Shown piece after piece: positions 3,576 through 34,837 of a stretch of DNA of 34,837 nt. The notes below the pieces were generated by a model. The model was not told the DNA's origin. It ran no database searches and was given only the letters and a program-made list of their open reading frames with translations. This DNA comes from an uncultured archaeon (GTDB taxonomy: Archaea; Aenigmatarchaeota; Aenigmatarchaeia; QMZS01), in NCBI GenBank assembly GCA_964386335.1, contig CAYLRQ010000002.1, forward strand, positions 1 to 34,837, read 5' to 3'. Position numbers and translations under genes: made by a program. Within the stretch, counting starts at the first letter, position 1; each line of letters begins with the position of its first letter.

Positions 3576-3666
3576 GCCTCCGTTGTGTAATTGGATAACA
3601 CACCACTTTGCGGAGCAAAAAAATAGTGAAAAGGTGGCAATCAGGGTTCGAATCCCTGCGGAGGCA
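3576..3666 (+). tRNA. tRNA-Arg (anticodon GCG) with an 18-nt intron after position 37
   Basis: Hand-folded cloverleaf. Acceptor GCCUCCG/CGGAGGC (7 bp) plus discriminator A. D arm GUGU-AAUUGGAUA-ACAC. Anticodon stem CCACU/GGUGG (one G-U) with loop UUGCGGA (GCG at 3610-3612). 4-nt variable region. T arm CAGGG-UUCGAAU-CCCUG. Nucleotides 3614-3631 interrupt the anticodon loop. No encoded CCA. Confidence 0.75.
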
Positions 3667-8800: not shown

Positions 8801-8933
8801 TGAAGAAGTTTATGACGTGCCTCTAATAATTTTTGTAATCCTCACAAGTATCCTAATAATCCTATTGGTAAAAACTGTTTATAGAAGAAAGAGTTGGAAA
8901 GAAGAAATCAAAGAACTAAAAAATCCTCGATAG
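5871..8933 (+). CDS. Secreted, C-terminally TM-anchored surface glycoprotein, paralog A of an unnamed family
   Basis: 1,020 aa. Signal-peptide-like N-terminus (ILLIFLLFLIIIPVEA). Many N-x-S/T sequons. Gly linker ETGGGGAGGT (7452-7490). C-terminal helix VPLIIFVILTSILIILLV followed by YRRKSWKEE. Colinear motif matches to ORF 19681..22953 (e.g. ARGPVRQG at 6651-6674 vs 22066-22089). Confidence 0.85.
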   Translation: MHINSSKNIKILLIFLLFLIIIPVEANPASYLTEKVDAKFDYNGTLISLDNKGSVEVEIFNRNDVLQNIEIILSSTSNTNLNDKKAYSAVAASPSMGDKTRLYINTNESNESIYYRFYNAPLVGMNLSYQNEIGGRDLTPEKNRIKFKLYLNSSKNLNGVELNIKAKKNTYGRNDSLNFIEGNASNGDVHLIDTDSDNFKDNLRWIGNLRKTATIDFVAEITPGINYPEDELKDDIDSKESHLNYSQPSTFTGITFSDRFARGPVRQGVEIMAKTNWTVKGFIKNIAYGFIYYIDHWNLYKVGENTSSASGMVKRNILPGKSFYTDEYDTGIRASSTPEQSLTKPPEVYYSVAFDWNVLWGGSEYYGLIDERMNLPNLYQMDLGLNKRIDIIKNDANGRILGIEDEIKHLGHANIQLSNLSINLTGLNGWKVLNLKIFYVNNTNKTEIINYTKKENSGNMEIILPLNISEKIRLNDIILLKYNLSGSAKEENKKYVFGINAIAITKSGTPIKKTLVSEIEVPGLKPVEEETGGGGAGGTYPEIRETAQIIKISAENKFITDYTIENKVLFKVIDTGTKGIRNPTYFLYLPEDSYLHVEDIKITLIRKGVEKELNIEIEKMGIKAIGKKNYLIYAIKKKTEPTEVDTLHDQDIIKIQYKLDIPLGTSEIITRAYGYNYYEDKYIFEDEVTKVRREYWKLRNLTITESKFENRKIFVGKPVRWMKTIEIYNPNERSVKELYTTKVFDNKLNVKIHESRNGSTNKINIEKEDKSTVSFFVNIMPKERITYFVFVDTPPILEIKRNTNILEIKNKSVKISLDITIKNFAKYQYKNAYLELPIQNILKCNFNYSVIGNKTEIKIPVIKSFENKTIKIVYVEKPPLLKIYTDKLRYRCNEIVNITLLIVQDKKKGYLEIEINGPGNSLNNIYADLISLEKSDTKKNIEVKLERCATGNYTIYGYYKSNFRPILISKESFFVDCEEVYDVPLIIFVILTSILIILLVKTVYRRKSWKEEIKELKNPR

Positions 8934-8941
8934 ATCGCAAA

Positions 8942-10369
8942 TTAATATCCCAATCTGCTGTGGAATTCCGTTATTTTCATCAGAACGCGCGGATTGCTTT
9001 CTTCCTGTTTTTCATATTCGGACAAAAGATGTATATACTGCTTTCTGGCCTCAGTATAATTTCTGGAATTTATTAACATCTGAATACGATTAATAAGTTC
9101 AAAAATTTTATCCTTTTTTTCTGATTCTTCCTGATTTATTATGACGGGTTTATAAATATATCTTGGCTTGGCATAGTTTATTTGTGAGGCTAATCTCTCT
9201 TCAGGAGAAATATTTTTCTTTGTTTTTTCCATATACGAGTTATTTTCAATTTTGCTGTCTATCTTCTTAGATAATCCGAGAAGTTTCATCTCCAGATCGG
9301 CAAATCTTTTGTTCAAATTTTCTTTTTCCAAATCCAATTGTTTTTTTATTTTTTCTTCATAGTCTTTTAGTTTATTATCTATGTACGTATAATCAACTCC
9401 CGCCAATTTTCCGCTTTGTTCTCTTTTTAGGGTTTCCATTCTCCTATCAAAAAACTGTTTAATTTTTTCTACTTCTTTATTTAATTCTGTCATATTTAGA
9501 CCTCCCGTCGTTTTATTGGTTCCTTTGATTACTTCAATCAGATCAGAAAACTTGCTCTCGGTATCGAATTTTAATTCGGCCAACTTTTCTTCTAATTCTT
9601 TATTTACTTTTTCTAATTCCCTTTTTTGTGCTGTTTCTGTTAATTTTAAAGACAATCTATCAACTGTTCTTAAAAGTTCTTTAAGTGTGTCCTCATTTGT
9701 TTCTATTTTATCTATATTGTTTCGTATTTTATTTAAATTTTCCTTCAGTTCATAAAATAAGGTTTCAACAGTTCCTGCATTCTTCTCCGTTTTATTTTTT
9801 AAATCTTCTACAATTTTAATTTTCTTATTTAATTCGTCTGCAATAGAAACAACATCTTTTAAACCTTTTATTTGTTCTATGGCGTTGGATAAATCCTTAA
9901 ATTTGCCGGATAGGATTTTAAGTCTATCTTCAATGGATTCTATTTTTGCGTTATTTTTTTCTATTTCGGCCTCCTTTTTCTCTAGATTTTTCAAAATTTT
10001 TTCTGGTTTTAATTCTTTAGCGATATCATATATTGTGTCAAACTTGCCTATAAGTTCGCTGTAATTTTTATCCAATTCTACCAACGAAGATCTCAATTCT
10101 CCAATTCTTTCGGAGAGATTAGTAATTCTCTCATTAACTTCTGATCTATTATTTTCTAAAATCTCGACACGGCCGAGCAATCTTTCAAGTTTCAGTGTTA
10201 AATCCACCAGGGATTCTTTTTCTGCATCTCTGCTTTCAAGCGAGGACAGGTCTTTTTTTTCATTTTTTTTTCTTCCAAATAACGTAAATTTCTTTTTTTC
10301 TTTTTCTTTCTCCCTTTTCTCAATATCTCGGAATTCTTCGGGAGTGATTATATTTTCTTCTTCTACCAT
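8942..10369 (-). CDS. Cytoplasmic long coiled-coil protein, function unknown
   Basis: 475 aa. No hydrophobic segment. Charged N-terminus (EKREKEKEKKK), then ~350 residues of heptad-like E/K/L/I/N sequence. Helical C-terminal block (IFELINRIQMLINSRNYTEARKQYIHLLSEYEK). The start codon lies 8 nt downstream of the giant gene's stop. Confidence 0.8.
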   Translation of the reverse strand: MVEEENIITPEEFRDIEKREKEKEKKKFTLFGRKKNEKKDLSSLESRDAEKESLVDLTLKLERLLGRVEILENNRSEVNERITNLSERIGELRSSLVELDKNYSELIGKFDTIYDIAKELKPEKILKNLEKKEAEIEKNNAKIESIEDRLKILSGKFKDLSNAIEQIKGLKDVVSIADELNKKIKIVEDLKNKTEKNAGTVETLFYELKENLNKIRNNIDKIETNEDTLKELLRTVDRLSLKLTETAQKRELEKVNKELEEKLAELKFDTESKFSDLIEVIKGTNKTTGGLNMTELNKEVEKIKQFFDRRMETLKREQSGKLAGVDYTYIDNKLKDYEEKIKKQLDLEKENLNKRFADLEMKLLGLSKKIDSKIENNSYMEKTKKNISPEERLASQINYAKPRYIYKPVIINQEESEKKDKIFELINRIQMLINSRNYTEARKQYIHLLSEYEKQEESNPRVLMKITEFHSRLGY

Positions 10370-10377
10370 AATATTCG

Positions 10378-13300
10378 CTAAATTTTTTCTAAGGAATTCT
10401 CCAAAGATGATATATATATTTCGGCCATCCTGAAGTTGCCCGTCTTAAGTTTATTTGTCGCGAGTTTGAAGTCCACCTCATAATCTTCGGTATAAACATT
10501 TCTTTCTTTTAGTTTTTTTATCTTCTCCTCAATAACTTTAAGCTTTGCTATATATTTTTTATACAACACGAGTTCGTCATCGCGGATTTTATGCGGATTA
10601 TGTTTTGTTGGCCTAAATTCAACAAAGAAGGGTTTTCCATCATTGTATTTGGGATATTGCATAAGTCCCGCACCAACACCCATTCTTGCAATTCTCTCCG
10701 AATATTGCTCTCCATATTTTGTTTTAACTTTATCTATGTCTGTCAACGATTTTGTATTTAACTGGAGTTCTGTCAAAACATTGCCTGCAATTGCTTCCTT
10801 AAAATCTGCCAGCACTTGTGAACACATAATAATGCCTATGCCCCATTTCCTGAATTCTCTTGCCGCTTTTTCCAGAGCAACATATCCTCCATGGCCTCCA
10901 TATTTCTCAAGTAAACGATGGACTTCATCAAAAACAATTACCAATTTTAATTCTGAACTTTCTTCCCAACTTTCTCTAAAAATAGAAGCAACAATATTGC
11001 GAACGGCTTCATCATATTCTCCGGATTTTAATTTGTTTAAGCAAAAAATGGTAATTTCTCCCGGGTTAATAAACTCCTTTATATTTAATTTAAAGTCCGG
11101 TTCTTCTACATCATAAATCAATCCGGGATAGGATTTTATATCAAAATCCCCCATATCAAATTTTTTGTATTTGCTTAAAAGATTATTATCCCTGCAGGGT
11201 TTAACAAAGCCCGTCCATTGCGCAGTTGGATCAAATACAATGACTGGTATTTTTTTGTCCAAAGCCTCTTCCGCAAATACAGAAGCAGAAACAGATTTTC
11301 CCGCTCCCGTTGCGCCAGCAACTATTATGTGAGTAGTCAAATCCTTTGGATCATAATAACAGTAATTATCTGTGCCGGCAAATTTTCCAATTTTAAAACC
11401 TTCTCTTGGAACTTTTCTATAATCAAGTGGATATAAGTATCTTTCCTCTTTTTCCTTTTCTTTCCTCCAAAGCAGATAATATCTCCATATATATGTGCCG
11501 CCAACTGCTACTGCCATCGCTAAAGCTAAAATTAATAATCCCACCGTTAGTGGAGATTCAAATAAGGGTTTAACCACTTCAAAAGTTGCCACATCCATAA
11601 TACTTTTTTCCTTATAATCTGCCCAGACTTCCAGAGTATAAGAGCCTTCTTCGGTGATATTTAAAGGCAAACTTTCTCTGACTATTGTTGTTGTTTCCAA
11701 AGTCGTATTTGTTTTCAGTTCTTCAATAATTTTATTTGTTTTCTGATATTTAATTATGTAAGTCAAATTCAGGGGATATTTTTTTCTTTCTCCCAGATTT
11801 ACCAATTTTACAATAAAATCCAAAGTTCCTTTTGGGTTTATTGTTTTACTTGCAATTTCAACTTTAACAGAGTAAATTGGTGCCGCCGATTCTAAAACCC
11901 TGATCGTAACGGGAATGCTTTGTTTTTGCCCTTCTGCTCTTATAATAATATTTCCCGCATAAGTTCCAATACTCTGATTGGTAAAAACTGTCAGGTAAAT
12001 ATCTAATTTTTTGGTTTCATTTGGTTGTAGAGTCAGTTTATTAGTACTTAAACTTAATAGGTCTCGCAAACCCTCTGTAATTTCCAGAGTGGTTGAAACA
12101 TTTTTATATAACTTATTTTTCATAGAAAGCCAATAAGTTTTAAGTTCTCCGCGGAAAACCCTGACGTCTCCAATATTCGTATCTATAACAAGAGGAAATT
12201 TTTCTATTGGACAGTCATTTGGACAGTTCTGCCAATTTTCTCCTATTTCGCAGACATTATTTCCGCAAATCGCTTTCTCCTCTTTTGAAGGAATGTAACT
12301 CTGTCCTCCACCTCCTCCTCCACCGCTAGTTCCTCCGCTCGTTTCTTTTTTTTCTTCTGGTTTAGAATAAGGAGTGCAGGGAACCAAACTGCTGCCAGAA
12401 TAACAGGCTTCTGCAACAAAGAACGCCGACAGGCTTGAAACGGTAAAATTGAACTTCTTGTTTTCTGGTGTGGCATTTAATATGTCTGAACTGGTTAAAT
12501 CCGAATTGCATTTTCTCTCAATATAGTTCCAATTATGACATTTAAAAATTCTAAGATGCTGCGGATTAATTGCCCAACCATATTTTTCAACTACGTAATT
12601 ATAAGCATCTGTGACATCCAAAATCAATCTCGCTTTACTAAGATTTATATTTGTGTCCACAACAAATCCGAGAATAGGAACATGAGTTTCGTCTGGTTTG
12701 TTCACCTCTGTTTTATTTGAAATCTCTATATAAGTTCCAAAATAATCAAATTTAAATGGATTTTTTATTTCATTTTCGGTTAAATCTAAGTTTGCATCAT
12801 AGAAAATTATTTTCTGACCGAATAAATCAACATCCACATCATATTTTCTCTTGTGCAAAGTCCAGTTATATGTTTTATTATCTCTGATGGAAAATTCATG
12901 CATTTTGTAGAGTTCTGCTAAATTTTTTTCTTCCCGGTAAAAAGTGAAGTTTGCATTGATTTTCTCTCCATCCGGGTTTGTTAAATTTCCCGTCATTTGT
13001 ATTGGCAGATAAATATCAAACCACCCCTTTTTGCTGCTTACGGGATTGCCTTCGGTATCATTTGCATAGACAATTATGTCGTAATCGCCTATCCGTTTTG
13101 GATTGGAAAAATTGAATACGAAATTTCTTTTATCAAAATCGTTTTCGGCGGGCAAAGTATTATTGGAGATGGGATATATCCTGTCTAATTTCCAATTGCT
13201 TCCAGTGTGATTGACGGTCGCCCATACAGAATCTATCTCTTTGTTATCCGTAACATTAACCTTAAAAATTATGTAAGGCAAAGTATAAGAAGTATTATCT

Positions 13301-16300
13301 ATAAAATATGTGTGAATATTCGAAAACCAAGGCGAAGTATAATCTTTATAAATAATTGCCTCTTCCTCTACATCGGAAAGAACAACTTCTTTTTTGGTAT
13401 AATTTCCAATAACTTCCAGATTATTTTTAATGGGGTTGTCTGTAATATTTGGAGCTGTACAAGTAATAAACCATCTTTGGCGTATTGTATGAAAATATAA
13501 ATCTGTAATAATGCATTCCTCTCCGCCAATTAAAATTGTCCAGTTTATGTCCTCCTGAACCGGAACATTTCCTTCCTTTGATTCTACTTCTATTGTTAAA
13601 TTTTGATTTGGTGAAACTTCTTCTGGATAAGGATCTTCCTTCTTTGGAGAAATAATATCAACGGTGAAATTAATTATTGTGAATGTGATAGGAATTTCAA
13701 CGGATTTTGGAGTAGCACTTTCATCCAAGTTTTCAATTTTTAAGGTATAATTGTAAGTTCCAATTATTAGAGAGTTATTATCAGTATCATAAAAAATTTC
13801 AACGGTTTTCTTTGTTTTGCTTGTTACACTTACTGAAGTTTGATTTGCTTGCTTTGTATCATTTAATGTTAAATAATTAATTGTTGTTTCATTTCCCGGG
13901 AGGATGGATAAATTAAATTCAAAATCTGCTTCTTTTTTGTTTGTGATTATAATTTCGCCGAGTTTATTTATTTCTTTTTTTAAACCCACTGTTTTGTTTA
14001 GGTAAATCGGAGAAACTTCCCAATCCTGGGAGGTTATATTAAGAATTAAAGGGAGATGGTCTGTGCAATTTCCGGTGCAATTTTGGATGGTTGCAGTGAT
14101 ATTCAGATGGTAAATGTTTATATAAGAATTGTTATCCGGTATTGTCAAAATCATGTTTATTGTAGAATTACTTGCTTTATTTAAACCGAAATTATTATTG
14201 CTGAAAGTTGTCCAATTATTTATCAAATCAGAATTATCTCCGGTTAAATTTAAAATAATATTGGTTAGATCTACATTTCCATAATTAAGTATGGTGAAAT
14301 TTGCCGTTCTGCTTGCCGTGATGGGAACGGTAAGAGTTAAATTATTTTCGGAGAATTTTATTCTCTTGTTTTCTTTAACATAAATTGAGATATTTTCCAT
14401 TGTATTATTTTTTGTACCGTCTGCATTCTGCCATTCAACGGTGAAATTTATCTGGTTATTTCCGATCTCCGCCCCGGCAGTTACAGTAATATTAATCTGT
14501 CTAGTGCAATTTTTTCCTGTTGGTATGGGTTCGCAATATATGGCCGGAATAAAAATTCCGATTGGTTTACTGACAGTTATTAAAGGATTGTACATTGTGC
14601 CATTTCCAGTATTATTCAGAAAGAAATTTAATAAGAGGGTTGCATTGTTCTCTATTGTTATGCCCTCCGCTGTTGAAGTGTTCAAACTCAGAATTAAATC
14701 TGCCGTCGTATTTCCAGAAGATACCTCAACCTTAATCTTCTTTTCATTAAGTTCCGTTGCATTATAAAAAAGATTCGGTTGATCTGCTATATTACAGGAA
14801 AAATTATAGTTGCCTTCGCCTCCAACTTTAGAATTTTTAACAGATACTCCCTTCTCATCTGTCAGATTAAATCCAATTAGCGTGGTGGTATTATAAAAAC
14901 TAACATTATACTTCGGTATTCCTTTTTCTGTATAATTATCTGCAACTTTGCACAATAAAGATAAATTTGCATTCTGCATGCATTTATAATTTAATAGACC
15001 TTCCGTTATATTAACAAAGGTGCAATAGTTGGAAACTATTGTAAGATTATTGATATAAGCAAAGCCCGTTAAATTAAAAAACAGGGTTTTTTTATCAGAA
15101 TCGTAAAACTGTTTTTCTGCCTCTGCAACTAATTTTCTTCTCCCAACATCTTCTGTTCCATTTAGTATATAATTCGTCGTATTTTCACCTATTTTTTTCT
15201 TTGAACTCAGATAAATTTGAACTGGCTCGCCAGAATGGAAATTTACACACTCTCCACTTTCATCCGCAAAGCAGAGATAATCAATTAGAGCAAAAACGGC
15301 ATCTCTCTCCCCCGCACCGGTATTTTTTTCGTTCCAGATAACAACGGATATGTTCCTCGCCGATGCGAAACTGAGATTGGTGCAAACATCGATGGTCCAG
15401 TTTTCCGGTTCTGGAACATCTCCGGAGGGATCCGTATTTTTTATAATTTCTTCTGTTAAATTGCAAATAACTTCTCCAACTTTTATATAGAATTCTCCAC
15501 TTGAACTGCTTTCATTAAATTCTCCCCAAGATTTGTATTTTATTTTTATTGAAGTTGGATAAGTAAAGTTAGGGAGTCTTTGGAATAACTTTGTTTCTCC
15601 ACCATTGGCAGATAGATTTGCAAAATAGTCGGAACCAATATGAGAAATATTGGTATGGCAGCCCACTGTGCTGCAAATAGAAGAATTCCAATATGAAAGG
15701 TCTCCAGAATCAAAACCTGCGTTTAAAATATTATAAGTTATATTATAAGAATTTAAATTTTCTTTCTTTAAATTAATTTCAAAAGTTTTGCTTTCATTTG
15801 CCGATAAATTAACCAAAAAAACCAATTCGGTTAGATTAGTCATATATTCTTGACTCTTATTTATTTCTAATTTGTCCGCTGTTTTCCACGAATATAAAGA
15901 AAATGGCAGTTCTGTTTCATTGAATAAAATTTTGGTTTTATTCAAATTCCAGTCTTTCAATTCAAAATCATCTGAACTAAAAAAACTTCCGTTCAAGATT
16001 ATCGGATAGTTGGTTCTATTTTTTCCGGATAAATCTTTAATTGTAAGATTTAATTTATATTTATTTACAAGATACCAATTGATCAATACTTCTGTAGTAT
16101 CATTACCACAATTATCCTTTGCAGAAGCATTCAGAGTAATATTTTGTCCCTTGTAATAGTTTCTCTCTTTTGGAGAAATTATTGTCAAATTTAATTTATC
16201 TCTTAAGATTATTTGTTCATCGGTTTGATTGTCTGAGATATTATAAAAATCATGGGTTCCGTTAATTTCAACAGACAGATTTTTTATTCCGACATTTAAA

Positions 16301-19300
16301 CTGCAATTTGGGGTATAAATTAAAGAACAGATTCCAGAAGAATTGGTTGTATTGGTTCCGATAAAGATTTCATTTAAATAAAAATGACAAGAATAACTAG
16401 AAAGATTTGCATAATTTTCATATCTATCAACTAATCTGGCGGAAAATGCCGCCTTTTCATTCTTATAGAAAGAAAAATTAACTGGATTTAAAATTGTTGG
16501 TTTTAACCATCCTTTTATGGTCAGATTATATTCTGTCGAATTTTTATCGTTGTAATAATCATCATTTTTTATTCCGATGTGCCAATTTGTTTTTCCTGGC
16601 TCAAAAGTTTGGCCCGGGTTAAAACTAAATTTGCAATAGCCGCTGGAATTGCTTTTTGTGGAATTTATCCACTTATTGACCCAAAGAGAACAATTCGCTC
16701 CAATAACTGTTTCTTCCGAATTCGTATCATTAATAAAAACAGATAAAGTTGCTGTTTCATTCCTGAAGACAACTGAATTGTTGCCTTCGCAACTATCCGC
16801 TAAATAAACAACAGAAACATTGTGTTTCAATACATTAAAATCTACAGAGGTGGTATTTCTCGGGTTATGAAATTTCGATGTGTTGTTTGAATTATAATCA
16901 AAATATTCAATTTTAAATTTGCTTATTCCAGTCCAGTTTTTGTCTGAGGTCAGATTAAATTCTACAATAGTTCCATTAGTGACGTTTTTTGAACCTTTAT
17001 TTACCCACGTCTTTGTTTTATTTTTAAAAATAAAAAGAACAACATTTATTGCATCATTGTCAATATCAGTTACATTGGCGGAAAATGTAAAATTTGCGCC
17101 CCAGATATCAGAAGATGGAGAGACCTTTAAATCGGTTAAGTTTGGTGGCAAATTGTAAGAACCTCCAACCAGATAATTTGTGGGATTGTTTGGACTCAAA
17201 GTTGGTTGCTTCCATTTGAAATACATATTGTTATTTATTTTTTTCTTGCAAACATAAAAAGTATCCGAACCAACCATTATTTGCGTGTAAGTTGGATTTG
17301 AAGTATTGCAATTATCTGTCAAATTTGGTGGGGTGATATCGTAAAAAGTTCCATTGCCATACCAATCAACCAATAAAAATTCTTCTCCCTCTATCTGCGA
17401 GTCATTAAGTTGCCACCATGCCGTCGCGTTTTTAAAAGTTCCGTTCGTAGCATTCAAAGTTAAATTTATTCTTCTCTTATAATTATCCATTCCATAAGTG
17501 GAGTAATAATCAGAGGTATTATATAAATGAATCGGCGTGCTCGTTTCCTGTGAACTGTCCCAAAAAAGAATGGAAAAGTTTGCATAGTTCCCGGCATTTA
17601 AGATGATTGGATTTGAAGAAATATTGCAAACTCTCTTTTCTATTCCAAATTCGGTTATATTTGTCACATTATAAGAAGTTAGATTAAAATCGCATTTTGT
17701 TGCACTATTATCAACAACAATATATTTAATTGAAATGTTCTCTGCTGGGATTCCCTTAAAAGTAATGTTATAAACCTTGCTTCCAACCGATTCGTTTATT
17801 TTAATATCGCTCGTTCTCGACCAAGCAGCAACATCCTTTTTGTAAGAAATAATGCCAGAAACATTGTAGACATATTCAACACTCAAATTAGATATATTTA
17901 ATTTTCCCTTGAAATCGGAATGAAAAATCAAAGGAATCTGACAATTATTTGCTGTATCGAGTGTAGTGCAGGTATTTATATAATTATTAATTGCGGAAAC
18001 TAAATTTTGACCTGTTGCAATTTCTGATGTTCTCAACTTTGTTTTTGAACTCTTCCAGTCTATTGTCGAATCATTGCCAACATCTATGCTTAAATTTGTC
18101 GGAAAATAATCAAAGTTGAAGACATAAATTTTTCCATCTATTGCTCCAGCAACTACTTCACTACCCTCATCTGTTGTCAGGTTACCTATTGCTATTGATT
18201 TTATGGTATCTCCAGCTACGAAATTACCTATCAAGTGTCCCGTACTATTTAAGATATATAATTCTTTATTATCACAACCTATAACTATCTCATTTCCTGC
18301 ATAATCATTTGCAATTTCTCCAATTCTAAGGCTGTTAACAGAACCTCCTGTACTATAGTTTTTAATTTCTCCTCCTGTAGAATTTAAAATATAGACTTTA
18401 TTGTCTCCAGTTCCAATTACAATTTCATTTCCCGGGTCAGAAGTAATATCTCCAAGGTCTATTGTATTTATTGATGAATCGCCAACAGTGATATTACTAA
18501 CAATTATTCCTGCAGAATTTAAAATATATATTTTTCCTCCCGCACAACCTGCAACAATCTCATTTCCTTCATCTTCAGTGAGATTTCCTATTACAATCTC
18601 ATTTATAGTCTCCTCAACAGAACTATTCCATTCCAAATTTCTAGACCGATTTATGACATAAATAATTGTACTGGAACAAGCAACAATCTCGCTATCTTCA
18701 CTGCCCACTATATTTCCTATTTTTACAGAGTTGATACTACCTCCTGTTGTATAATTCCATATCTCGTTACCAGTGGAGTTCAATAAATAAACCTTGCCAT
18801 CTCCAGAACCAACAACAATTTCTTCTCCAAGATCAGAAGTTACATTTCCTACATCTGTTGAATAAATCGGATTGGGAGAGATATAATATTCTTTTACTAA
18901 CGTTCCATTGCTTCCGTACAATATACTTACCTCTCCATCATAACCGGAAGTACCGGTTACAATTTCATTTTCATCTCCATGAAATATATTGCCTATTGAA
19001 ATTCCTAAAGGTGCTACATTGGAGGATTTCACAGGAGAATTATAAATCGTTGTAAGTTTCCCGGTCAAATTCATGCTGATATTCTGCACTGTCGCATTTT
19101 TTGGAATTGATAAATAAAATGTTTTATTTCCGCCATTTTCTGGAAAATCAAATTCTGCGGAAGAAATAAATGAAGCAGAATCATTAAATTTTGTCAGAAT
19201 GTATCTGAAAGAAAGGTTGCTCAAATCCAGAATATATTCTCCTTTTTGAACTCCCAAAAATCCTCCCGCAATATGAACATTTATAAATAGTGATGATAAA

Positions 19301-19350
19301 ATCAAGGTAAGACCTGCGGCAAAAATAGAAGTAAGCATCCTCTTTTCCAT
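10378..19350 (-). CDS. Giant (2,990 aa) type I membrane protein: propeller-tipped glycosylated ectodomain + single TM + cytoplasmic FtsK/HerA-superfamily ATPase
   Basis: Uninterrupted 8,973-nt ORF. Signal-peptide-like N-terminus MEKRMLTSIFAAGLTLILSSLFINVHIAG. Seven tandem blades. Very dense N-x-S/T sequons in the ectodomain. One hydrophobic helix about 370 aa from the C-terminus. Walker A and B motifs in the tail. Confidence 0.9.
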   Translation of the reverse strand: MEKRMLTSIFAAGLTLILSSLFINVHIAGGFLGVQKGEYILDLSNLSFRYILTKFNDSASFISSAEFDFPENGGNKTFYLSIPKNATVQNISMNLTGKLTTIYNSPVKSSNVAPLGISIGNIFHGDENEIVTGTSGYDGEVSILYGSNGTLVKEYYISPNPIYSTDVGNVTSDLGEEIVVGSGDGKVYLLNSTGNEIWNYTTGGSINSVKIGNIVGSEDSEIVACSSTIIYVINRSRNLEWNSSVEETINEIVIGNLTEDEGNEIVAGCAGGKIYILNSAGIIVSNITVGDSSINTIDLGDITSDPGNEIVIGTGDNKVYILNSTGGEIKNYSTGGSVNSLRIGEIANDYAGNEIVIGCDNKELYILNSTGHLIGNFVAGDTIKSIAIGNLTTDEGSEVVAGAIDGKIYVFNFDYFPTNLSIDVGNDSTIDWKSSKTKLRTSEIATGQNLVSAINNYINTCTTLDTANNCQIPLIFHSDFKGKLNISNLSVEYVYNVSGIISYKKDVAAWSRTSDIKINESVGSKVYNITFKGIPAENISIKYIVVDNSATKCDFNLTSYNVTNITEFGIEKRVCNISSNPIILNAGNYANFSILFWDSSQETSTPIHLYNTSDYYSTYGMDNYKRRINLTLNATNGTFKNATAWWQLNDSQIEGEEFLLVDWYGNGTFYDITPPNLTDNCNTSNPTYTQIMVGSDTFYVCKKKINNNMYFKWKQPTLSPNNPTNYLVGGSYNLPPNLTDLKVSPSSDIWGANFTFSANVTDIDNDAINVVLFIFKNKTKTWVNKGSKNVTNGTIVEFNLTSDKNWTGISKFKIEYFDYNSNNTSKFHNPRNTTSVDFNVLKHNVSVVYLADSCEGNNSVVFRNETATLSVFINDTNSEETVIGANCSLWVNKWINSTKSNSSGYCKFSFNPGQTFEPGKTNWHIGIKNDDYYNDKNSTEYNLTIKGWLKPTILNPVNFSFYKNEKAAFSARLVDRYENYANLSSYSCHFYLNEIFIGTNTTNSSGICSLIYTPNCSLNVGIKNLSVEINGTHDFYNISDNQTDEQIILRDKLNLTIISPKERNYYKGQNITLNASAKDNCGNDTTEVLINWYLVNKYKLNLTIKDLSGKNRTNYPIILNGSFFSSDDFELKDWNLNKTKILFNETELPFSLYSWKTADKLEINKSQEYMTNLTELVFLVNLSANESKTFEINLKKENLNSYNITYNILNAGFDSGDLSYWNSSICSTVGCHTNISHIGSDYFANLSANGGETKLFQRLPNFTYPTSIKIKYKSWGEFNESSSSGEFYIKVGEVICNLTEEIIKNTDPSGDVPEPENWTIDVCTNLSFASARNISVVIWNEKNTGAGERDAVFALIDYLCFADESGECVNFHSGEPVQIYLSSKKKIGENTTNYILNGTEDVGRRKLVAEAEKQFYDSDKKTLFFNLTGFAYINNLTIVSNYCTFVNITEGLLNYKCMQNANLSLLCKVADNYTEKGIPKYNVSFYNTTTLIGFNLTDEKGVSVKNSKVGGEGNYNFSCNIADQPNLFYNATELNEKKIKVEVSSGNTTADLILSLNTSTAEGITIENNATLLLNFFLNNTGNGTMYNPLITVSKPIGIFIPAIYCEPIPTGKNCTRQINITVTAGAEIGNNQINFTVEWQNADGTKNNTMENISIYVKENKRIKFSENNLTLTVPITASRTANFTILNYGNVDLTNIILNLTGDNSDLINNWTTFSNNNFGLNKASNSTINMILTIPDNNSYINIYHLNITATIQNCTGNCTDHLPLILNITSQDWEVSPIYLNKTVGLKKEINKLGEIIITNKKEADFEFNLSILPGNETTINYLTLNDTKQANQTSVSVTSKTKKTVEIFYDTDNNSLIIGTYNYTLKIENLDESATPKSVEIPITFTIINFTVDIISPKKEDPYPEEVSPNQNLTIEVESKEGNVPVQEDINWTILIGGEECIITDLYFHTIRQRWFITCTAPNITDNPIKNNLEVIGNYTKKEVVLSDVEEEAIIYKDYTSPWFSNIHTYFIDNTSYTLPYIIFKVNVTDNKEIDSVWATVNHTGSNWKLDRIYPISNNTLPAENDFDKRNFVFNFSNPKRIGDYDIIVYANDTEGNPVSSKKGWFDIYLPIQMTGNLTNPDGEKINANFTFYREEKNLAELYKMHEFSIRDNKTYNWTLHKRKYDVDVDLFGQKIIFYDANLDLTENEIKNPFKFDYFGTYIEISNKTEVNKPDETHVPILGFVVDTNINLSKARLILDVTDAYNYVVEKYGWAINPQHLRIFKCHNWNYIERKCNSDLTSSDILNATPENKKFNFTVSSLSAFFVAEACYSGSSLVPCTPYSKPEEKKETSGGTSGGGGGGGQSYIPSKEEKAICGNNVCEIGENWQNCPNDCPIEKFPLVIDTNIGDVRVFRGELKTYWLSMKNKLYKNVSTTLEITEGLRDLLSLSTNKLTLQPNETKKLDIYLTVFTNQSIGTYAGNIIIRAEGQKQSIPVTIRVLESAAPIYSVKVEIASKTINPKGTLDFIVKLVNLGERKKYPLNLTYIIKYQKTNKIIEELKTNTTLETTTIVRESLPLNITEEGSYTLEVWADYKEKSIMDVATFEVVKPLFESPLTVGLLILALAMAVAVGGTYIWRYYLLWRKEKEKEERYLYPLDYRKVPREGFKIGKFAGTDNYCYYDPKDLTTHIIVAGATGAGKSVSASVFAEEALDKKIPVIVFDPTAQWTGFVKPCRDNNLLSKYKKFDMGDFDIKSYPGLIYDVEEPDFKLNIKEFINPGEITIFCLNKLKSGEYDEAVRNIVASIFRESWEESSELKLVIVFDEVHRLLEKYGGHGGYVALEKAAREFRKWGIGIIMCSQVLADFKEAIAGNVLTELQLNTKSLTDIDKVKTKYGEQYSERIARMGVGAGLMQYPKYNDGKPFFVEFRPTKHNPHKIRDDELVLYKKYIAKLKVIEEKIKKLKERNVYTEDYEVDFKLATNKLKTGNFRMAEIYISSLENSLEKI
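10381..11484 (-). other. Cytoplasmic P-loop ATPase domain (DUF87/HerA - VirB4 - VirD4 - FtsK superfamily), last 368 aa of the giant protein
   Basis: Walker A HIIVAGATGAGKS (GATGAGKS at 11293-11316) followed by IPVIVFDPTAQW. Walker B LKLVIVFDEVHRL (~10924-10944). REFRKWGIGIIMCSQVLADF block. No N-x-S/T sequon anywhere in these 368 residues. Confidence 0.8.
11485..11553 (-). other. Single transmembrane helix of the giant protein
   Basis: PLTVGLLILALAMAVAVGGTYIW is followed by the basic stretch RYYLLWRKEKEKEER (positive-inside). It is the only long hydrophobic stretch after the signal peptide. Confidence 0.8.
12208..12339 (-). other. Gly-run linker plus 4-Cys module in the giant protein
   Basis: SGGTSGGGGGGGQ is encoded at 12301-12339, and CGNNVCEIGENWQNCPNDCP at 12208-12267. 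This separates the long distal ectodomain from two membrane-proximal Ig/CARDB-like modules. Confidence 0.7.
18106..18993 (-). repeat. Seven tandem ~44-aa blades (FG-GAP / PQQ-like beta-propeller), residues 120-415 of the giant protein
   Basis: Repeating unit G[ND](I/L/V)x..D.g.EIV.G...GK(V/I)Y(I/L)LNS.G. The seven blades start at GNIFHGDENEIV, GNVTSDLGEEIVV, GNIVGSEDSEIVA, GNLTEDEGNEIVA, GDITSDPGNEIVI, GEIANDYAGNEIVI and GNLTTDEGSEVVA. Confidence 0.8.
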
Positions 19351-19411
19351 AATTATCTTGCATTATATAAAATACAAGAGGTCTTCATAAAGGAGTGCTT
19401 GAGTTATGTTT

Positions 19412-19684
19412 TTATTGAGCTTTATTATTATCCGGTCTCTCTATATTTCTTCCAACATTAATTGCATTTCTTAATTCACTAACAGAATCTCTCAATTCTC
19501 TTATGCTTTTTGTAAGGATCAGTTCTTCATCATCAAATTTTTTTGTAATTTTCCTAATCTGTCTGAATTCAAATTCCAAGATGGCCAGATAAACAATAAT
19601 AACAAGAGAGAGCAAAAGCAGCAATTCTGTAATGGGTATGTTTATTCCAAATAAATATACATATCCTGTTATTCCTTCCATCAT
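19412..19684 (-). CDS. Small single-pass membrane protein with a coiled-coil-like tail
   Basis: 90 aa. TM helix ELLLLLSLVIIVYLAILEF followed by RQIRKITKK and a helical charged tail. Its ATG overlaps the stop of the upstream paralog B gene (ATGA at 19681-19684). Confidence 0.7.
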   Translation of the reverse strand: MMEGITGYVYLFGINIPITELLLLLSLVIIVYLAILEFEFRQIRKITKKFDDEELILTKSIRELRDSVSELRNAINVGRNIERPDNNKAQ

Positions 19685-22600
19685 TTATTTTGTTTTTTAA
19701 TAATATAAAATCTTTTTACACTCATATAAAGGAGAATTATGGCGAATAATATTGTTAAATAACCCACTAAATTTCCATAATTTGCGGTTGTACCAACAAT
19801 ATAGAAATTTCCTGTTCCCGTCGCCAGAATTGCTAAATCGGATCTCAATCTGCTTTCCGCTAAATACGTTCCGGTCGGGGCTCCAACTGGAACTCTAAAT
19901 CTTTCGGAGATACTCGTTTTATCTATCGGATCTAATTTCCCCAAATCTTGTATATTTGAATAAACCAGATTCCTTTCTGGAGTGTACACTTCAGTTTCCA
20001 GATAAGGATTATTTATTTCTTCTCCGCCATGAATAACTAAAATATCCAGAGTTACTGTCGAATTCAAACTATATCTTTCCTTGTCTGGAGTAATAATTAT
20101 TTTGGGATAACTTTGCTTATATCTTATATTTATTTCTTTTAAACCTTTCGCTGGAAATTTATTTATTAATATGGTTGTCAGATCTTTTCCACCTGTATAG
20201 GATAAACTATTTCCCAAACCATCTTTAACGGAAAGAATATTGTCTCTGGAAATTGGTAAGTTTATGGCAACATTTTCATAGTCTTCCATTGCAAGGCTCC
20301 TCAAGAATATTGACATTTTTAATTCAACCATCTTGTTTTCCAACTTCTTTATTACTTCAACGTCTCTATCCGTTTCCAAAACGGGCGGAGTTAAAATTCT
20401 GATATCATAGTTTCTCGTTTCCAGAGGTGCCAGTCTCGTTTTCCAAACCATCACGGTGGTTCCATTTTCTTTTTTGAAAACAACTTTTTCATCTATTTTC
20501 TCTCCTTTTTTATTCAAATAAGAAACAAATCCGTCGGTAGTATCTTCAAAAACATCTATTTTAAATTCGGATTCTACCCATCTTTGATTTGGATTATAAA
20601 CATCAAAATCTTTAACCCAAGCAACGGGATTTCCCACAGTTATTGTCCTCGCTGTCAGGAAATCTGTTTGTTTTATTATTGGCTCTACCAGTGGACTTGG
20701 AACTATAACTCTAACAACTCCATAAGCTGTAGAAAAGACCTTTTTACCAAGAGCAGGGTCAAAACCTGCCAGTTCCATCGGTATTTCATATAAACCCGAT
20801 TGGGTTATATTTATCTGATATAATATTTTAACTGCAGCACCACTGCTTAAAGTCCACCCGCTTTTATCGCCATTTGTATATTCACAGGCATGGACTTTAG
20901 TTCCATCGGATAAAGTAATGGTTCCTCTATCAGTTACATTATAATCCTCGCTAACACCGCAACTCCAGGTTGAACCGTCTGTTGAATTGCAAAAAGTTAC
21001 AGAAGATCTGGAACAAGCAAAGTCGGTTCCCAAAGGAACATAATCAACAAATTTAATTCCGGTAATTTCGTCTCCAAAAACCTGAGCAACCAAACTTCCA
21101 TTCACTAAAGTCGGATTTGCCGGATCCGGAACCCACAAATCTTTATAACCAACCAATTGTTTTCCTGAAGTGGACATTGACTTGGCGGGTAAATTTTCTG
21201 TTTCCGGTGTTCCGCTTTGAGTTGTTATAGTTGAATTTCCAGTAAAATTAAAAACATCTCCCAATTGTAAATTTGACGGCGAAGATACTTCATAAAATAA
21301 TTTTATTTTTTCTCCATTTTCTAAATATTTACCAATATTTGTTGAACTTAAATCAGGTATTGTAACATTAACCAATCCATTATTATCTCCGCTTGGGTCT
21401 GTAACTGTAACAGTTACTCCGTTTGTCGTCCCCGTTCCCGTTTTCAAAGTATAATCTGTACCATTATTAAATGAAACAATTATTGAGGTCTCATCTATAT
21501 CAAAGGGAGATCTCTGAGATCCGCTGGTTGTATTTCTGGGAACAACACTCAAAATAACAATTTTCTTTCCCGGAGCATTGTCATCTCCTTGATAAGTAAC
21601 TTCATCTGTTATGTTAAAAGTTGTTGCCGACTCAATAGCCAGATAACCGCCAGTAGTTTTTGTTGGAACCATATCAATTTTGTATAAAGTTGGTAAATCT
21701 AAAGTTGTATTAATATAAGAAACATAATTATCTGGATTCGTATCGTTCCAGATTATATGCCAGTCAAAAGAAGAAGCTACATAAGGCTTTGTTCCAGTTA
21801 TATGAACTCTGGTGGTATCATTAGAATAATCCGGGTCTGTTGTATATAATCTTCCATAATCTGCCGTAAAGTTTGATGGGCTAAAGGTTCCCTCCTGCAA
21901 TTTATTTGTTACAGCCCCCGTTGTTGCACTTACATTGTAAATTGCCCAATTTGAAATATTATAGGTCAAAACATTTCCATTAACTTCTGTAGAGTTCTTT
22001 GCCAGAATAGTTATAAATCCTCTGACATCCCAGGCTCCGCCTCCGCTCATTTCGGCCATATCAATTCCCTGCCTGACAGGACCTCTCGCATATTTATACG
22101 CTATTGTTAAACCAGTCAAAGTTGAGGTTTGGGAATAAGAACTTTTTACCCCCTTATCAGATGAAGCAGAATCCAAATTTATATTTGTATTGCCATTAGC
22201 AAAGTTGTCTGTTTCAATAATATTTGCGTAAATAGTAAAGGTTTGTGTTCCTCCCGCATTTATATCGCCGCTCCAGGTTATTCTGTCATAATAACCATCT
22301 GCGCCATCGCTTGAAGATCTAGAACCTGAAGAGGTATAGGTAATATTTACGGCATCTGCCCCACCATTAGTATCTGTATCAAACTGGATTACGATCTCTA
22401 CATTTGCTAAATTTTTGGATGTTGAAGGATTGTGTGCCGTTATTACAAAAGTCATATTATTTGTTGAGCCTCCGGAACCAATATTATCGTGATCGTATAA
22501 ATCATGACCTCCCTGTTCATTTGAATAAGAAGTAACATTAAATTCTATTGCTGGGGCTTTATTTGCATTTGTAATCTTATAATAATTCTGATCCTCTCCA

Positions 22601-22953
22601 AAAACGGAGTCGTTGACATAAAGTTTTGTTTTAGCCCAGATGGCAGAAGAAGAAGAAACAGTCGCTTTGTAAGCCTCTTTTGAATTCAAATTTGTATCTG
22701 TTGTTCCAGAAAGATTTATCCTGACTGTTTGGAGTGTGTCATTGGTATTTGGCAGGGCAACTTCCAAGAAGCCAAATCTGCACGGATTTGAATTATCGAT
22801 GCATTCCGGATAGGTTTCTGAAGAAAGAGAACCATCCGTATTATAATCCGCATAAACCTGCTCTGTCTGATAAGCCACCGGACCAACATAGGCAAAAACA
22901 GGAGCAACTAAAACTAATCCAAAAATTATTGCCCAGAAAAAAAGCATCCTCAT
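19681..22953 (-). CDS. Secreted, C-terminally TM-anchored surface glycoprotein, paralog B of the same unnamed family
   Basis: 1,090 aa. Signal peptide MRMLFFWAIIFGLVLVAPVFA. T/S/G/D-rich ectodomain with many sequons. C-terminal helix LVGYLTILFAIILLYM followed by KRFYIIKKQNK. Colinear with ORF 5871..8933. Confidence 0.85.
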   Translation of the reverse strand: MRMLFFWAIIFGLVLVAPVFAYVGPVAYQTEQVYADYNTDGSLSSETYPECIDNSNPCRFGFLEVALPNTNDTLQTVRINLSGTTDTNLNSKEAYKATVSSSSAIWAKTKLYVNDSVFGEDQNYYKITNANKAPAIEFNVTSYSNEQGGHDLYDHDNIGSGGSTNNMTFVITAHNPSTSKNLANVEIVIQFDTDTNGGADAVNITYTSSGSRSSSDGADGYYDRITWSGDINAGGTQTFTIYANIIETDNFANGNTNINLDSASSDKGVKSSYSQTSTLTGLTIAYKYARGPVRQGIDMAEMSGGGAWDVRGFITILAKNSTEVNGNVLTYNISNWAIYNVSATTGAVTNKLQEGTFSPSNFTADYGRLYTTDPDYSNDTTRVHITGTKPYVASSFDWHIIWNDTNPDNYVSYINTTLDLPTLYKIDMVPTKTTGGYLAIESATTFNITDEVTYQGDDNAPGKKIVILSVVPRNTTSGSQRSPFDIDETSIIVSFNNGTDYTLKTGTGTTNGVTVTVTDPSGDNNGLVNVTIPDLSSTNIGKYLENGEKIKLFYEVSSPSNLQLGDVFNFTGNSTITTQSGTPETENLPAKSMSTSGKQLVGYKDLWVPDPANPTLVNGSLVAQVFGDEITGIKFVDYVPLGTDFACSRSSVTFCNSTDGSTWSCGVSEDYNVTDRGTITLSDGTKVHACEYTNGDKSGWTLSSGAAVKILYQINITQSGLYEIPMELAGFDPALGKKVFSTAYGVVRVIVPSPLVEPIIKQTDFLTARTITVGNPVAWVKDFDVYNPNQRWVESEFKIDVFEDTTDGFVSYLNKKGEKIDEKVVFKKENGTTVMVWKTRLAPLETRNYDIRILTPPVLETDRDVEVIKKLENKMVELKMSIFLRSLAMEDYENVAINLPISRDNILSVKDGLGNSLSYTGGKDLTTILINKFPAKGLKEINIRYKQSYPKIIITPDKERYSLNSTVTLDILVIHGGEEINNPYLETEVYTPERNLVYSNIQDLGKLDPIDKTSISERFRVPVGAPTGTYLAESRLRSDLAILATGTGNFYIVGTTANYGNLVGYLTILFAIILLYMSVKRFYIIKKQNK

Positions 22954-23139: not shown

Positions 23140-23796
23140 ATGTGCGGAATATTTGGATATGTCGGAAATAATAACGCTGTTCCGATATTAAAAAAAGGTT
23201 TGAAAAAACTGAATTATAGAGGTTATGATTCCTGGGGTCTCGGTTTAAAAATAATGGATAAAATCAAAATTATAAAAGACGTTGGAGATTTTGAAAGACT
23301 GGAAGAAACACCCGAAATTGATTCAAATTTGGGCATATCTCACACTCGATGGGCTACAATGGGAGAAATATCAAAAAATAATGCTCATCCGCATACTAAT
23401 GAAGATAACGGGATTTGTGTCGTGCATAATGGAATCATAGAAAACTTTCGAGAATTGAAAGAAGAATTGCTGAATAAAGGTCATAACTTCAAATCAGAAA
23501 CAGATACGGAGATAATCTGCCATCTTATCGAAGAATATGATGAATACAAATTTCCCGAAGCGGTAAGAAAAGCCTTCTTAAAATTAAAGGGCAGAAATGC
23601 CATTGTTGCTTTGCATAAAGATTTTAATGGACTGGTTGGCGTGAAAAACGGTTCTCCTCTGGTGGTGGGAATAAAAAACAATTCCGGCAAAGAAGAATAT
23701 TTCATTGCCTCCGACCATAGAGCCTTTATAACGGAAACAAACAAGGTTATTTTTTTAAATGATAATGAGTTAGTGGTTTTGGAACAAAATGAATGA
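23140..23796 (+). CDS. glmS: GlmS fragment 1: class II (Ntn) glutamine amidotransferase domain
   Basis: MCGIFGYVG (catalytic Cys2), HTRWATMGE and VHNGIIENF motifs. Ends at TGA 23794-23796, inside what is normally the last part of the amidotransferase domain. Confidence 0.8.
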   Translation: MCGIFGYVGNNNAVPILKKGLKKLNYRGYDSWGLGLKIMDKIKIIKDVGDFERLEETPEIDSNLGISHTRWATMGEISKNNAHPHTNEDNGICVVHNGIIENFRELKEELLNKGHNFKSETDTEIICHLIEEYDEYKFPEAVRKAFLKLKGRNAIVALHKDFNGLVGVKNGSPLVVGIKNNSGKEEYFIASDHRAFITETNKVIFLNDNELVVLEQNE

Positions 23797-34442: not shown

Positions 34443-34837
34443 CTACTCGGTCTGATTTCCTTCAGCGAGAGGAGCCAGAGTGGGGTTTGTAGTACCCGTT
34501 ACCTTAACTGCTGTTCCCGTTAATTTGGGTGCATATTCGTCATAGTCATATTTCTGCAATACGCTGCAAGCTGCCTGCGTGTTTTCTGCTTCCCAACCTG
34601 CAACAATTAAAGCAACTTTTCCTGTTGTGAAAGCATCATTGACAAGTTTTATCACTGCGGCATCTTCTGGAATTGTTGATGCCTCTCCGTAGGTTGGATA
34701 ACTCAATCCAAGAGCCTGCGCAGTTAATCTGTTAACTGCCGGTCCTCCAACCAAAATCAAATTCTTCTCCGTCTTTGCAGTTTCAATTTCCGGATCTGTA
34801 TCCAATCTTGCAATGTTGTCCATTATTGGAACAACCT
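34443..34837 (-). CDS. S-layer protein, C-terminal part (gene continues beyond the window edge)
   Basis: The frame stays open to the window edge (..VVPIMDNIARLD..). NLILVGGPAVNRLTAQALGL...GKVALIVAGWEAENTQAACSVL matches the conserved C-terminal domain of euryarchaeal-type S-layer proteins. G+C is visibly higher than in neighbouring genes. Confidence 0.6.
   Translation of the reverse strand, partial: VVPIMDNIARLDTDPEIETAKTEKNLILVGGPAVNRLTAQALGLSYPTYGEASTIPEDAAVIKLVNDAFTTGKVALIVAGWEAENTQAACSVLQKYDYDEYAPKLTGTAVKVTGTTNPTLAPLAEGNQTE

Follow-up and report, generated by a model that had tools for sequence, protein, structure and literature searches.

The 34,837-nucleotide (nt) stretch of DNA analysed here (contig CAYLRQ010000002.1, positions 1 to 34,837; hereafter the window) comes from an Aenigmatarchaeota archaeon, has a G+C content of 33%, and contains a cluster of five genes (Table 1), which encode two paralogous surface proteins (A and B), a membrane protein of 90 amino acids (aa), a giant surface protein ending in an ATPase tail, and a coiled-coil protein (CC). 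The genes for B, the 90-aa protein, the giant and CC follow one another on the minus strand, while that for A converges on them from the other side. As read directly at the junctions, the end of the B gene and the start of the 90-aa gene overlap in the sequence ATGA, a 61-nt gap separates the 90-aa gene from the giant gene, the TAG stop of the giant gene is followed after 8 nt by the ATG of the CC gene, and the stops of the A and CC genes face each other 8 nt apart. The cluster lies between archaeal housekeeping genes, with SMC, ScpA, SepF, a TtuA-like gene and cytidylate kinase in one flank and a split GlmS, GlmM, GlmU and a GT2 glycosyltransferase in the other; with such flanks, the locus is thus chromosomal. 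By its sequence features, the cluster is identified as the Aenigmatarchaeota version of the SPEARE giant-surface-protein system of DPANN archaea, in a compact form with a single ATPase.

The original prediction, an earlier reading of the same DNA from its letters and open reading frames (ORFs), had given the five genes and their junctions exactly as they appear in the ORF list and on direct reading. Its further claims that A and B are paralogs, that four of the proteins are single-pass membrane proteins, that the giant, A and B expose sequon-rich ectodomains, and that these envelope proteins are combined with a cytoplasmic ATPase and a coiled-coil protein are all borne out by the results below. 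It had also seen no parts of an archaellum or pilus, no NurA, Mre11 or Rad50, no relaxase and no polytopic protein among the five genes, and none of these was found there in Pfam and NCBIfam scans or by hydropathy.

Table 1. Genes and sequence features of the SPEARE-type cluster (positions in the window; residues refer to the encoded protein)
Feature	Position	Strand	Length or residues	Evidence or remark
Paralog A gene	5871-8933	+	1020 aa	six-frame ORF list; stop convergent on the CC gene
A, C-terminal transmembrane helix	8802-8885	+	978-1005	hydropathy
CC gene	8942-10369	-	475 aa	ORF list
CC, C-terminal three-helix bundle	8951-9109	-	421-473	AlphaFold2 model, pLDDT about 87; close relatives only
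CC, conserved core	9500-10210	-	54-290	alignment
CC, signature SERIGELRS	10088-10114	-	86-94	within the conserved core
Giant gene	10378-19350	-	2990 aa	ORF list
Giant, cytoplasmic HerA-clade P-loop ATPase tail (predicted)	10381-11484	-	2623-2990	Pfam DUF87 E 1.2e-9, HerA_C E 6.5e-9
Giant, conserved C-terminal helical segment of the tail	10381-10590	-		consensus ELELKLAkdKLKxGrFRMAeIYIxSL over 96 tails
Giant, REFRKWG motif	10840-10860	-	2831-2837	R2834 aligns with HerA R381
Giant, Walker B VIVFDE	10924-10941	-	2804-2809	aligns with the HerA Walker B region holding E356
Giant, Walker A GATGAGKS	11293-11316	-	2679-2686	invariant in the tail alignment
Giant, single transmembrane helix	11485-11565	-	2596-2622	hydropathy
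Giant, membrane-proximal ectodomain	11560-13971	-	1794-2597	common to all giants; BLASTP
Giant, poly-Gly linker (G x7) and Cys-rich motif CGNNVCEIGENWQNCPNDC	12211-12324	-	2343 (linker), 2362 (Cys-rich motif)	
Giant, PQQ-like beta-propeller near the distal tip	18247-18999	-	about 118-368	Pfam, NCBIfam
Giant, N-terminal hydrophobic segment, presumed Sec signal	19249-19350	-	5-34	hydropathy
A/T-rich TATA-like box TTTTATATAA	19363-19372	-		13 nt 5' of the giant ATG, inside the 61-nt gap
90-aa gene	19412-19684	-	90 aa	ORF list
Paralog B gene	19681-22953	-	1090 aa	ORF list
B, C-terminal transmembrane helix	19699-19779	-	1059-1085	hydropathy

The giant is a predicted type-I membrane protein of the SPEARE family with an ATPase tail, as the hydropathy profile contains only an N-terminal hydrophobic segment and a single transmembrane (TM) helix, after which a tail of 368 aa follows. 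Its ectodomain (about 2,560 aa) is predicted to consist of a propeller tip and a long string of beta-sandwich domains and to be heavily N-glycosylated. The propeller is matched by Beta-prop_ACSF4 (E 6.7e-21) and Beta-prop_CGLA (E 1.4e-10) of Pfam, where it spans residues of about 118-357, and by PA5033_fam (E 1.9e-10) of NCBIfam. The ectodomain contains 156 N-x-S/T sequons, or 6.1 per 100 aa, which is three times the number expected from its composition; all 156 precede the TM helix and the tail contains none. The ectodomains of A and B contain 2.6 and 2.4 sequons per 100 aa, respectively, against a baseline of 0.34 in 14 cytoplasmic proteins of the window, and this confinement of sequons to the parts predicted to lie outside supports the topology assigned to all three proteins. 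The last 200 or so residues of the membrane-proximal ectodomain are also present in short 'mini' ATPases (BLASTP), and orthologues of the giant with 2910-3107 aa were found at 19 loci.

SPEARE proteins were described for Nanohaloarchaeota by Hamm et al. 2019 (PMC6642349), who were already aware of comparable sequences from Aenigmarchaeota, Woesearchaeota, Micrarchaeota and Altiarchaeales; their expression has been reported from proteomics. Reva et al. 2023 (PMC10266531) call them giant membrane-anchored surface proteins. Known members are NAR1_1133, SG9 AQV86_04780, SVXNc_0300 and BNXNv_0298 (PMC6642349, PMC10266531). The published architecture comprises a Sec signal, PQQ-like propellers, Ig-like (immunoglobulin-like) repeats, a TM helix, a conserved cytoplasmic ATPase and a C-terminal coil, while the laminin-G, serine-protease and restriction-endonuclease assignments behind the original acronym have been disputed (PMC10266531). 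The giant of the window shares the type-I topology, signal, propeller, Ig-like stalk, single TM helix near the C-terminus, cytoplasmic P-loop tail and helical C-terminal end. Its tail is 54% identical over 370 aa to that of BNXNv_0298, with ectodomain residues from about 1771 to 2597 also aligning (E 3.5e-33), and 60% identical to the tail of a 3,904-aa giant from a metagenome contig (ectodomain E 1e-44); identities of 51-54% were found to the short ATPases of Nanohalovita, Nanohalococcus and SG9, and of 54-61% to the tails and short ATPases of loci L001 and L002. Tail homologues also stand directly after enormous genes of 3,904 aa (metagenome contig) and 8,880 aa (Nanohalovita, BNXNv_0298). 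In contrast to the nanohaloarchaeal proteins of 5,998-9,409 aa, however, the window giant has only 2,990 aa, is encoded in an organism of 33% G+C, and is not accompanied by a mini ATPase gene of the SVXNc_0299/BNXNv_0297 type. It contains no laminin-G, serine-protease, restriction-endonuclease or toxin-like region according to Pfam, where only a sub-threshold P-loop match to ResIII occurs. It is instead accompanied by A, B and the 90-aa protein, which were not found by BLAST in the nanohaloarchaeal flanks compared, these excluding the DNA upstream of the largest giants. The 'undescribed apparatus' of the original prediction thus holds only in part, since the giant belongs to a published family, while the partner set of CC, the 90-aa protein and A/B looks undescribed.

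The tail carries the features of HerA-clade ATPases. Walker A, Walker B and the REFRKWG motif are invariant among 15 diverse tails, and in a HMMER alignment with Sulfolobus HerA (4d2i) REFRKWG pairs with REGRKFG, E2809 with E356, and R2834 with R381. In HerA, K154, the Walker B glutamate E356 and R381, the trans-acting arginine finger, have been described (PMC4351679). When a profile of the 15 tails was compared with all solved structures, only HerA-type proteins were matched, among them 4d2i (E 1e-11), HerA subunits of defence complexes (9c1m, 8wiv, 8xau and 8ziq among the HerA-type relatives) and YjgR, while no VirB4, TrwB/VirD4 or FtsK chain appeared at E<=0.01; the nearest of these structures are without exception hexamers of HerA. 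Homologues of the tail number 324 proteins at E<=1e-5, of which the best 120 listed are 44-62% identical and derive from Aenigmatarchaeota, Woesearchaeota and Nanohaloarchaeota; Ca. Nanohalovita haloferacivicina, Ca. Nanohalococcus occultus and SG9 are among the organisms represented. The tail lacks the HAS barrel (about 100 aa), as the DUF87 match begins at residue 2653, 30 residues past the TM helix, and leaves no room for it. On these grounds the tail is classed here as a HerA-clade ATPase, predicted to be catalytically intact and dependent on oligomerisation, and the invariance of the trans-acting arginine suggests that it forms a hexameric ring.

This classification bears on the published proposal of Reva et al. 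2023 (PMC10266531), in which the system resembles a type IV secretion system (T4SS), the giant acting as a 'straw' through which protein effectors are driven into the host by a VirB4/TraG-like ATPase. In the literature, a SPEARE-bearing nanohaloarchaeon is reported to be joined to its host by cytoplasmic bridges of up to 11 nm, and trans-cellular methylation is reported for that consortium. Both fit such an injector, as do the Pfam matches of the tail to TrwB_AAD_bind and AAA_10, which are weak and cover the P-loop only; the Pfam match to FtsK_SpoIIIE reaches 16.4 bits against a cut-off of 24. We nevertheless regard the injector as improbable, because the solved-structure matches at E<=0.01 are of HerA type only. 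The VirB4 N-domain (PF03135) reported for SVXNc_0299 was not reproduced with current Pfam, being found at E<=1 in none of SVXNc_0299, BNXNv_0297 and P0006, nor is it among the matches of the full-length window giant at E<=0.1. In addition, no relaxase and no further T4SS component was found in the whole 34.8-kb window. The T4SS label is thus left unsupported. The SPEARE ATPase, previously placed inconsistently, as a restriction enzyme and then with VirB4/TraG, is here assigned to the HerA clade, a placement that appears to be unreported.

The CC gene encodes a predicted cytoplasmic coiled-coil protein without TM helices (hydropathy), which belongs to no Pfam or NCBIfam family and gives only sub-threshold matches to SMC/Rad50-type coiled coils. 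In alignment its homologues (325-1123 aa across loci) show a conserved core, then a stretch that differs widely in length and, at the C-terminus, a helical domain conserved in close relatives only, and the AlphaFold2 (AF2) model of the window protein contains long helices and a C-terminal three-helix bundle predicted with confidence. The distribution of CC was followed in 185,579 species-representative genomes, in which a scan with the tail alignment gave at least 583 coding matches, 79 loci being kept, for which ORFs were called and compared with the window proteins by BLAST. A CC homologue stands directly 3' of the last ATPase gene in 74 of the 82 loci with downstream DNA, at a median gap of 10.5 nt and often with a 4-nt overlap. 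A hidden Markov model (HMM) of the CC core gives 76 matches, exactly one ORF per locus and always the gene after the ATPase gene, and the matches are thus not coiled-coil noise. Conversely, when metagenome contigs were searched with the CC signature E[ER]IGELR[ST][SM], which was derived from the core alignment, the broad CC alignment being too divergent for pattern extraction, an ATPase tail was found just upstream on the same strand in 65 of the 67 loci with enough upstream DNA. The 518-aa gene after the ATPase genes of Nanohalovita is likewise a homologue of the window CC (E 8e-24), while the CC gene is absent from the account of Reva et al., who name a proteasome activator and the ATPase located downstream (PMC10266531). 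CC may thus be regarded as a near-obligate partner of the ATPase family, a near-universal association which is apparently unreported.

Several further observations concern CC itself. The best Foldseek match of its model is the MIT domain of Vps4 (MIT/TPR-like), which at E about 0.3 is not significant, and an MIT domain is not assigned. An equivalence between the C-terminal bundle of CC and the C-terminal helical segment of the tail, as a TPR-like hairpin, was rejected at an hhalign probability of 2.4% (97 and 67 sequences). CC contains nine N-x-S/T sequons, or 1.9 per 100 aa, where its composition would predict 3.6 and the other cytoplasmic proteins have 0.34; the nine are probably a by-product of Asn/Ser/Thr-rich heptads. 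At the CC-less locus L049, three small ORFs on the opposite strand (9334-10703, -) lie right after the giant and have hydrophobic pilin-like (class III signal peptide-like) N-termini.

A and B are 30% identical over their N-terminal 460 aa (E 4e-42) and 27% identical over their C-terminal 360 aa (E 8e-23), and hydropathy places in each a single hydrophobic segment at the N-terminus and a single TM helix at the C-terminus. B begins with a signal peptide, and its AF2 model (pLDDT, the predicted local distance difference test score, of 73) shows about a dozen beta-sandwich domains resembling Ig or macroglobulin (MG) domains and a TM helix, for which Foldseek returns only generic adhesin 'legs' (Ig domains of PrgB, MG domains of complement, integrin alpha). 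A and B are not assigned to the S-layer proteins, as no Pfam or NCBIfam family matches above threshold and the fold matches, obtained for the B model, are generic Ig/MG-like ones. In the 90-aa protein a single hydrophobic segment lies within residues 9-41 and precedes a basic stretch, and a charged helical cytoplasmic tail is predicted. Only 17 relatives of B were found in a collection of 5.8 billion proteins, all unnamed or from Aenigmatarchaeota, and a B profile gave 168 representatives among 1.84 billion. In 12 loci a homologue of the 90-aa gene separates B from the giant, at a median distance of 5 nt from B, and among the loci where BLAST had missed such a homologue a profile HMM added only L007. 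A and B are confined to a small lineage-specific family, and the 90-aa protein is lineage-specific as well. The middle domain of B (residues about 430-830) also occurs in the second giants of L003 and L005 (3,925 and 3,860 aa, with Laminin_G_3, DUF2341 and Big_13), whose genes lie directly upstream of B (L003 1-9442, L005 1-8928), and in larger convergent proteins of L022, L038 and L027.

The original prediction had further taken the five genes as one functional unit, and the same gene order is indeed found in many independent genomes. The full order of B, 90-aa gene, giant and CC with A convergent is seen in L009 and L012, and the part from giant to A is kept in L008, L010 and L011, which are cut upstream; the A orthologues that converge 3' of CC in L008-L012 are 38-53% identical to A. 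The order from B to CC is also present in L014, L015, L020-L025 and L037, where the tail is only about 60% identical. It is likewise seen in L003 and L005, two contigs of B relatives, in which B is followed by a small TM protein (88-111 aa, sometimes two), a 2,967-2,978-aa giant with propeller and DUF87, and a CC homologue. Altogether, at least four or five species-level relatives have the complete five-gene order. Of the 17 giants with upstream DNA in the 2,910-3,107-aa subgroup of the propeller subfamily, 12 are preceded by B and the 90-aa gene; a further five loci (L018, L027, L038, L040 and L043) have an A-like gene divergent upstream and also a larger convergent protein with the middle domain of B (residues about 483-830). 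The subfamily of giants of about 2,200 aa has in the upstream place an unrelated protein of 657-701 aa with a signal peptide and a C-terminal TM helix. Of 83 loci, 13 have a second 'mini' ATPase after the giant, and in all 13 the giant is a larger one; in the window CC directly follows the giant. The mini ATPase is a trait of certain members and did not belong to the original definition of the family. This pattern points to the giant and CC as an ancient and widespread core, with or without a mini ATPase, that is surrounded by lineage-specific membrane-anchored accessories.

With the cluster so strongly conserved, the five genes very likely form one functional unit, as originally predicted. 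They do not appear to form an indivisible one, since the pair of B and the 90-aa gene is also found away from the giant, and they are better described as a core of giant and CC with a separate pair of B and 90-aa gene. The pair in question, at L007 4459-7952, consists of overlapping genes for a B homologue (40% identity) and a 90-aa homologue with no ATPase-tailed giant adjacent, and its surroundings contain a 1,730-aa MG2-like protein and a gene of the exosortase/archaeosortase family. That the cluster is no unit at all, either because surface genes and a vestigial ATPase are adjacent by chance or because it is a HerA-based defence or mobile element, seems very improbable. The tail does give weak PADLOC matches to HerA and mad8, and DPANN genomes are compact, so that tight gene spacing alone is weak evidence of a common function. 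Nevertheless, synteny persists in dozens of species-level genomes, whichever of the two directions is searched, and the catalytic motifs are invariant, and the flanks are housekeeping genes. No NurA, Mre11 or Rad50 and no defence effector such as Sir2 or DUF4297 was found among the five genes by Pfam, NCBIfam and PADLOC, and a defence system was rejected as a candidate on the same PADLOC result.

Further observations concern the spread and evolution of the system. The ATPase-tailed system is ancient and widespread, with its matches in species-representative genomes falling in several DPANN phyla and in Hydrothermarchaeota. Locus L047, on a 1.9-Mb contig of Ca. Hydrothermarchaeum profundi JdFR-18 (MTMF02000009.1), holds a giant (>3,695 aa), a 272-aa gene and CC outside DPANN, followed downstream by a second coiled-coil protein, cheR, queC and a radical-SAM gene. 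A number of loci bear labels of metagenome-assembled genomes from Methanosarcinales, Heimdallarchaeota or Methanobacteriota, where binning errors are possible. In a neighbour-joining (NJ) tree, the ATPase domains of giants and minis at L001, L002, L028, L030, L051, L084, L086 and other loci are usually mutual closest relatives. Two ancient paralog clades of giant tails and mini ATPases were thus rejected; the pairing within loci points to concerted evolution or to local duplications that happened repeatedly, and giant and mini ATPases may possibly form mixed rings. Five JGI metagenome contigs (L087-L091; Ga0136651_10001816, Ga0190304_1000237, Ga0190306_1000284, Ga0190316_1004439 and Ga0190316_1001835) encode a giant tail and CC core with 94-100% amino-acid identity to those of the window (tblastn) and are a possible source of population variation or matching metatranscriptomes.

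The cluster may comprise two transcription units, B with the 90-aa gene and the giant with CC, in view of a constant gap of at least 42 nt between the 90-aa gene and the giant (12 of 12 loci) and of the TATA-like box within the gap, which is possibly an internal promoter of the giant gene. Comparable boxes occur 13-25 nt 5' of the giant ATG in seven loci, but such a box is weak evidence in DNA of only 33% G+C.

The window system can be compared with several known machines. HerA, as found in HerA-NurA and in the Sir2-HerA and DUF4297-HerA scaffolds, is the closest solved relative by sequence and shares Walker A, Walker B and RExRKxG. HerA is soluble, however, whereas the window tail is without a HAS barrel and has a TM helix and giant ectodomain instead, and its partner is a coiled-coil protein rather than NurA, Mre11, Rad50, Sir2 or DUF4297. 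FtsK/SpoIIIE, Streptomyces TraB, TrwB/VirD4, CedB and EssC/EccC are ring ATPases tethered to the membrane by N-terminal TM segments, which move DNA or protein across envelopes and often between cells; the Pfam matches of the window tail to FtsK_SpoIIIE and TrwB are below threshold and confined to the P-loop. The machines of this group possess several TM helices, or else a polytopic partner that forms the channel, unlike the single TM helix of the window motor. We know of no motor of the FtsK, TraB, VirD4, CedB or EssC type that is fused to an ectodomain of several thousand residues, CedB and EssC being compared here from general descriptions. The type VIIb secretion system (T7SSb) combines its motor with the small single-pass EssA and the large-ectodomain EsaA, which by their general description resemble the 90-aa protein and A/B, but Pfam and NCBIfam scans of the five genes gave no WXG100 gene. 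The Ced/Ted import systems differ in that no polytopic (CedA-like) protein was found in the cluster by hydropathy.

From these comparisons the following mechanism is proposed. HerA-type ATPases hydrolyse ATP only as rings, with the arginine finger supplied by the neighbouring subunit, and the tails should therefore assemble into a ring. The ring would probably be hexameric and lie under the membrane, bundling several stalks and their TM helices. CC would dock on it as a regulator, adaptor or tether, and A and B, as Ig-like membrane-anchored proteins, would serve with the 90-aa protein as accessory envelope subunits around the stalk base. Adhesion would be the task of the ectodomains, and ATP hydrolysis would power work at the contact site with another cell, most probably polymer translocation, with nucleic acid as the first guess and protein as the second by analogy with HerA, FtsK, TraB and CedB. 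We give a probability of about 0.6 to this reading of the cluster as a version of SPEARE in which a ring motor under clustered adhesin stalks, with CC as partner and A, B and the 90-aa protein as accessories, transfers a polymer at cell contact; we are moderately confident of what the system is and have little confidence as to its cargo. A transfer complex is favoured because membrane-tethered relatives move DNA or protein, and because bridges and methylation have been seen with a SPEARE-bearing nanohaloarchaeon. It is also possible, though on balance doubtful, that the core and accessories form a distinct and so far unclassified envelope machine, neither a T4SS nor a HerA-NurA derivative, whose motor is fused to its own fibre and which builds or drives the bridges of DPANN archaea for exchange of DNA or protein.

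Several points weigh against a transfer complex. Ring formation, CC binding and the cargo are steps that we infer, eight of the 82 loci have no detectable CC, and the mini ATPase of loci with larger giants is not present in the window. Six glycosylated ectodomains of 2,600 aa on one ring may be sterically awkward, and with one TM helix per subunit and no polytopic protein there is no obvious channel. The gap before the giant gene may hold a promoter, and co-transcription of all four genes is only putative. Finally, the system also occurs in a Hydrothermarchaeota genome of free-living type (the 1.9-Mb contig), beside cheR and queuosine/archaeosine-type genes, and a role in host contact is therefore not universal. 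Some of the same facts would suit a device for adhesion or anchoring only, with the giant, A and B serving as adhesins or envelope scaffold and the ring, together with CC, as a clutch working from inside out or an anchor to the cytoskeleton by which the stalks are clustered, tensioned or remodelled; nothing would be transported. The five genes encode no channel-forming polytopic protein, the long CC varies greatly in length, as a structural tether might, B resembles the legs of integrin, complement and PrgB, and the system is found in a lineage that is not symbiotic. This explanation is nonetheless held to be unlikely, as the characterised HerA-clade members among the matches are ring translocases or DNA-engaged hexameric defence scaffolds, and as the tail is conserved across phyla (most listed homologues 44-62% identical) while the ectodomains diverge, which suggests a demanding enzymatic cycle. 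The transfer complex thus remains our preferred reading.

Giants of the SPEARE type are the leading candidates for the means by which DPANN archaea attach to other cells and exchange material with them. The compact variant of about 3,000 aa, with a single ATPase and defined accessories, is structurally more tractable than the 9,000-aa nanohaloarchaeal proteins, and the CC signature SE(E/K)IGELR(S/T) provides a handle for finding and studying the system anywhere. Its occurrence in Hydrothermarchaeota cautions against reading it purely as a device of parasitism.

A few features of the remaining window were also recorded. Rfam identifies a tRNA at 3576-3666 (+; 50 bits, 91 nt), which probably contains an intron, while ARAGORN finds no tRNA in the window. 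The split glmS consists of a glutamine-amidotransferase ORF (23140-23796, +) and a 2xSIS ORF (23821-24942, +) in a common reading frame, and as two in-frame stops (TGA 23794 and TAA 23806) and 24 nt lie between the halves, it is a genuinely split gene rather than one with a single read-through stop. A 329-aa ORF (30917-31906, +) shows a weak match (E 0.0026) to the core domain of STT3/AglB and may be a remnant or divergent fragment of the oligosaccharyltransferase of N-glycosylation, which would be relevant to the adjacent sequon-rich proteins. At the end of the window, a 126-aa ORF (34443-34823, -) matches the outer domain of the archaeal S-layer-like family PF05124 (E 4.9e-12).

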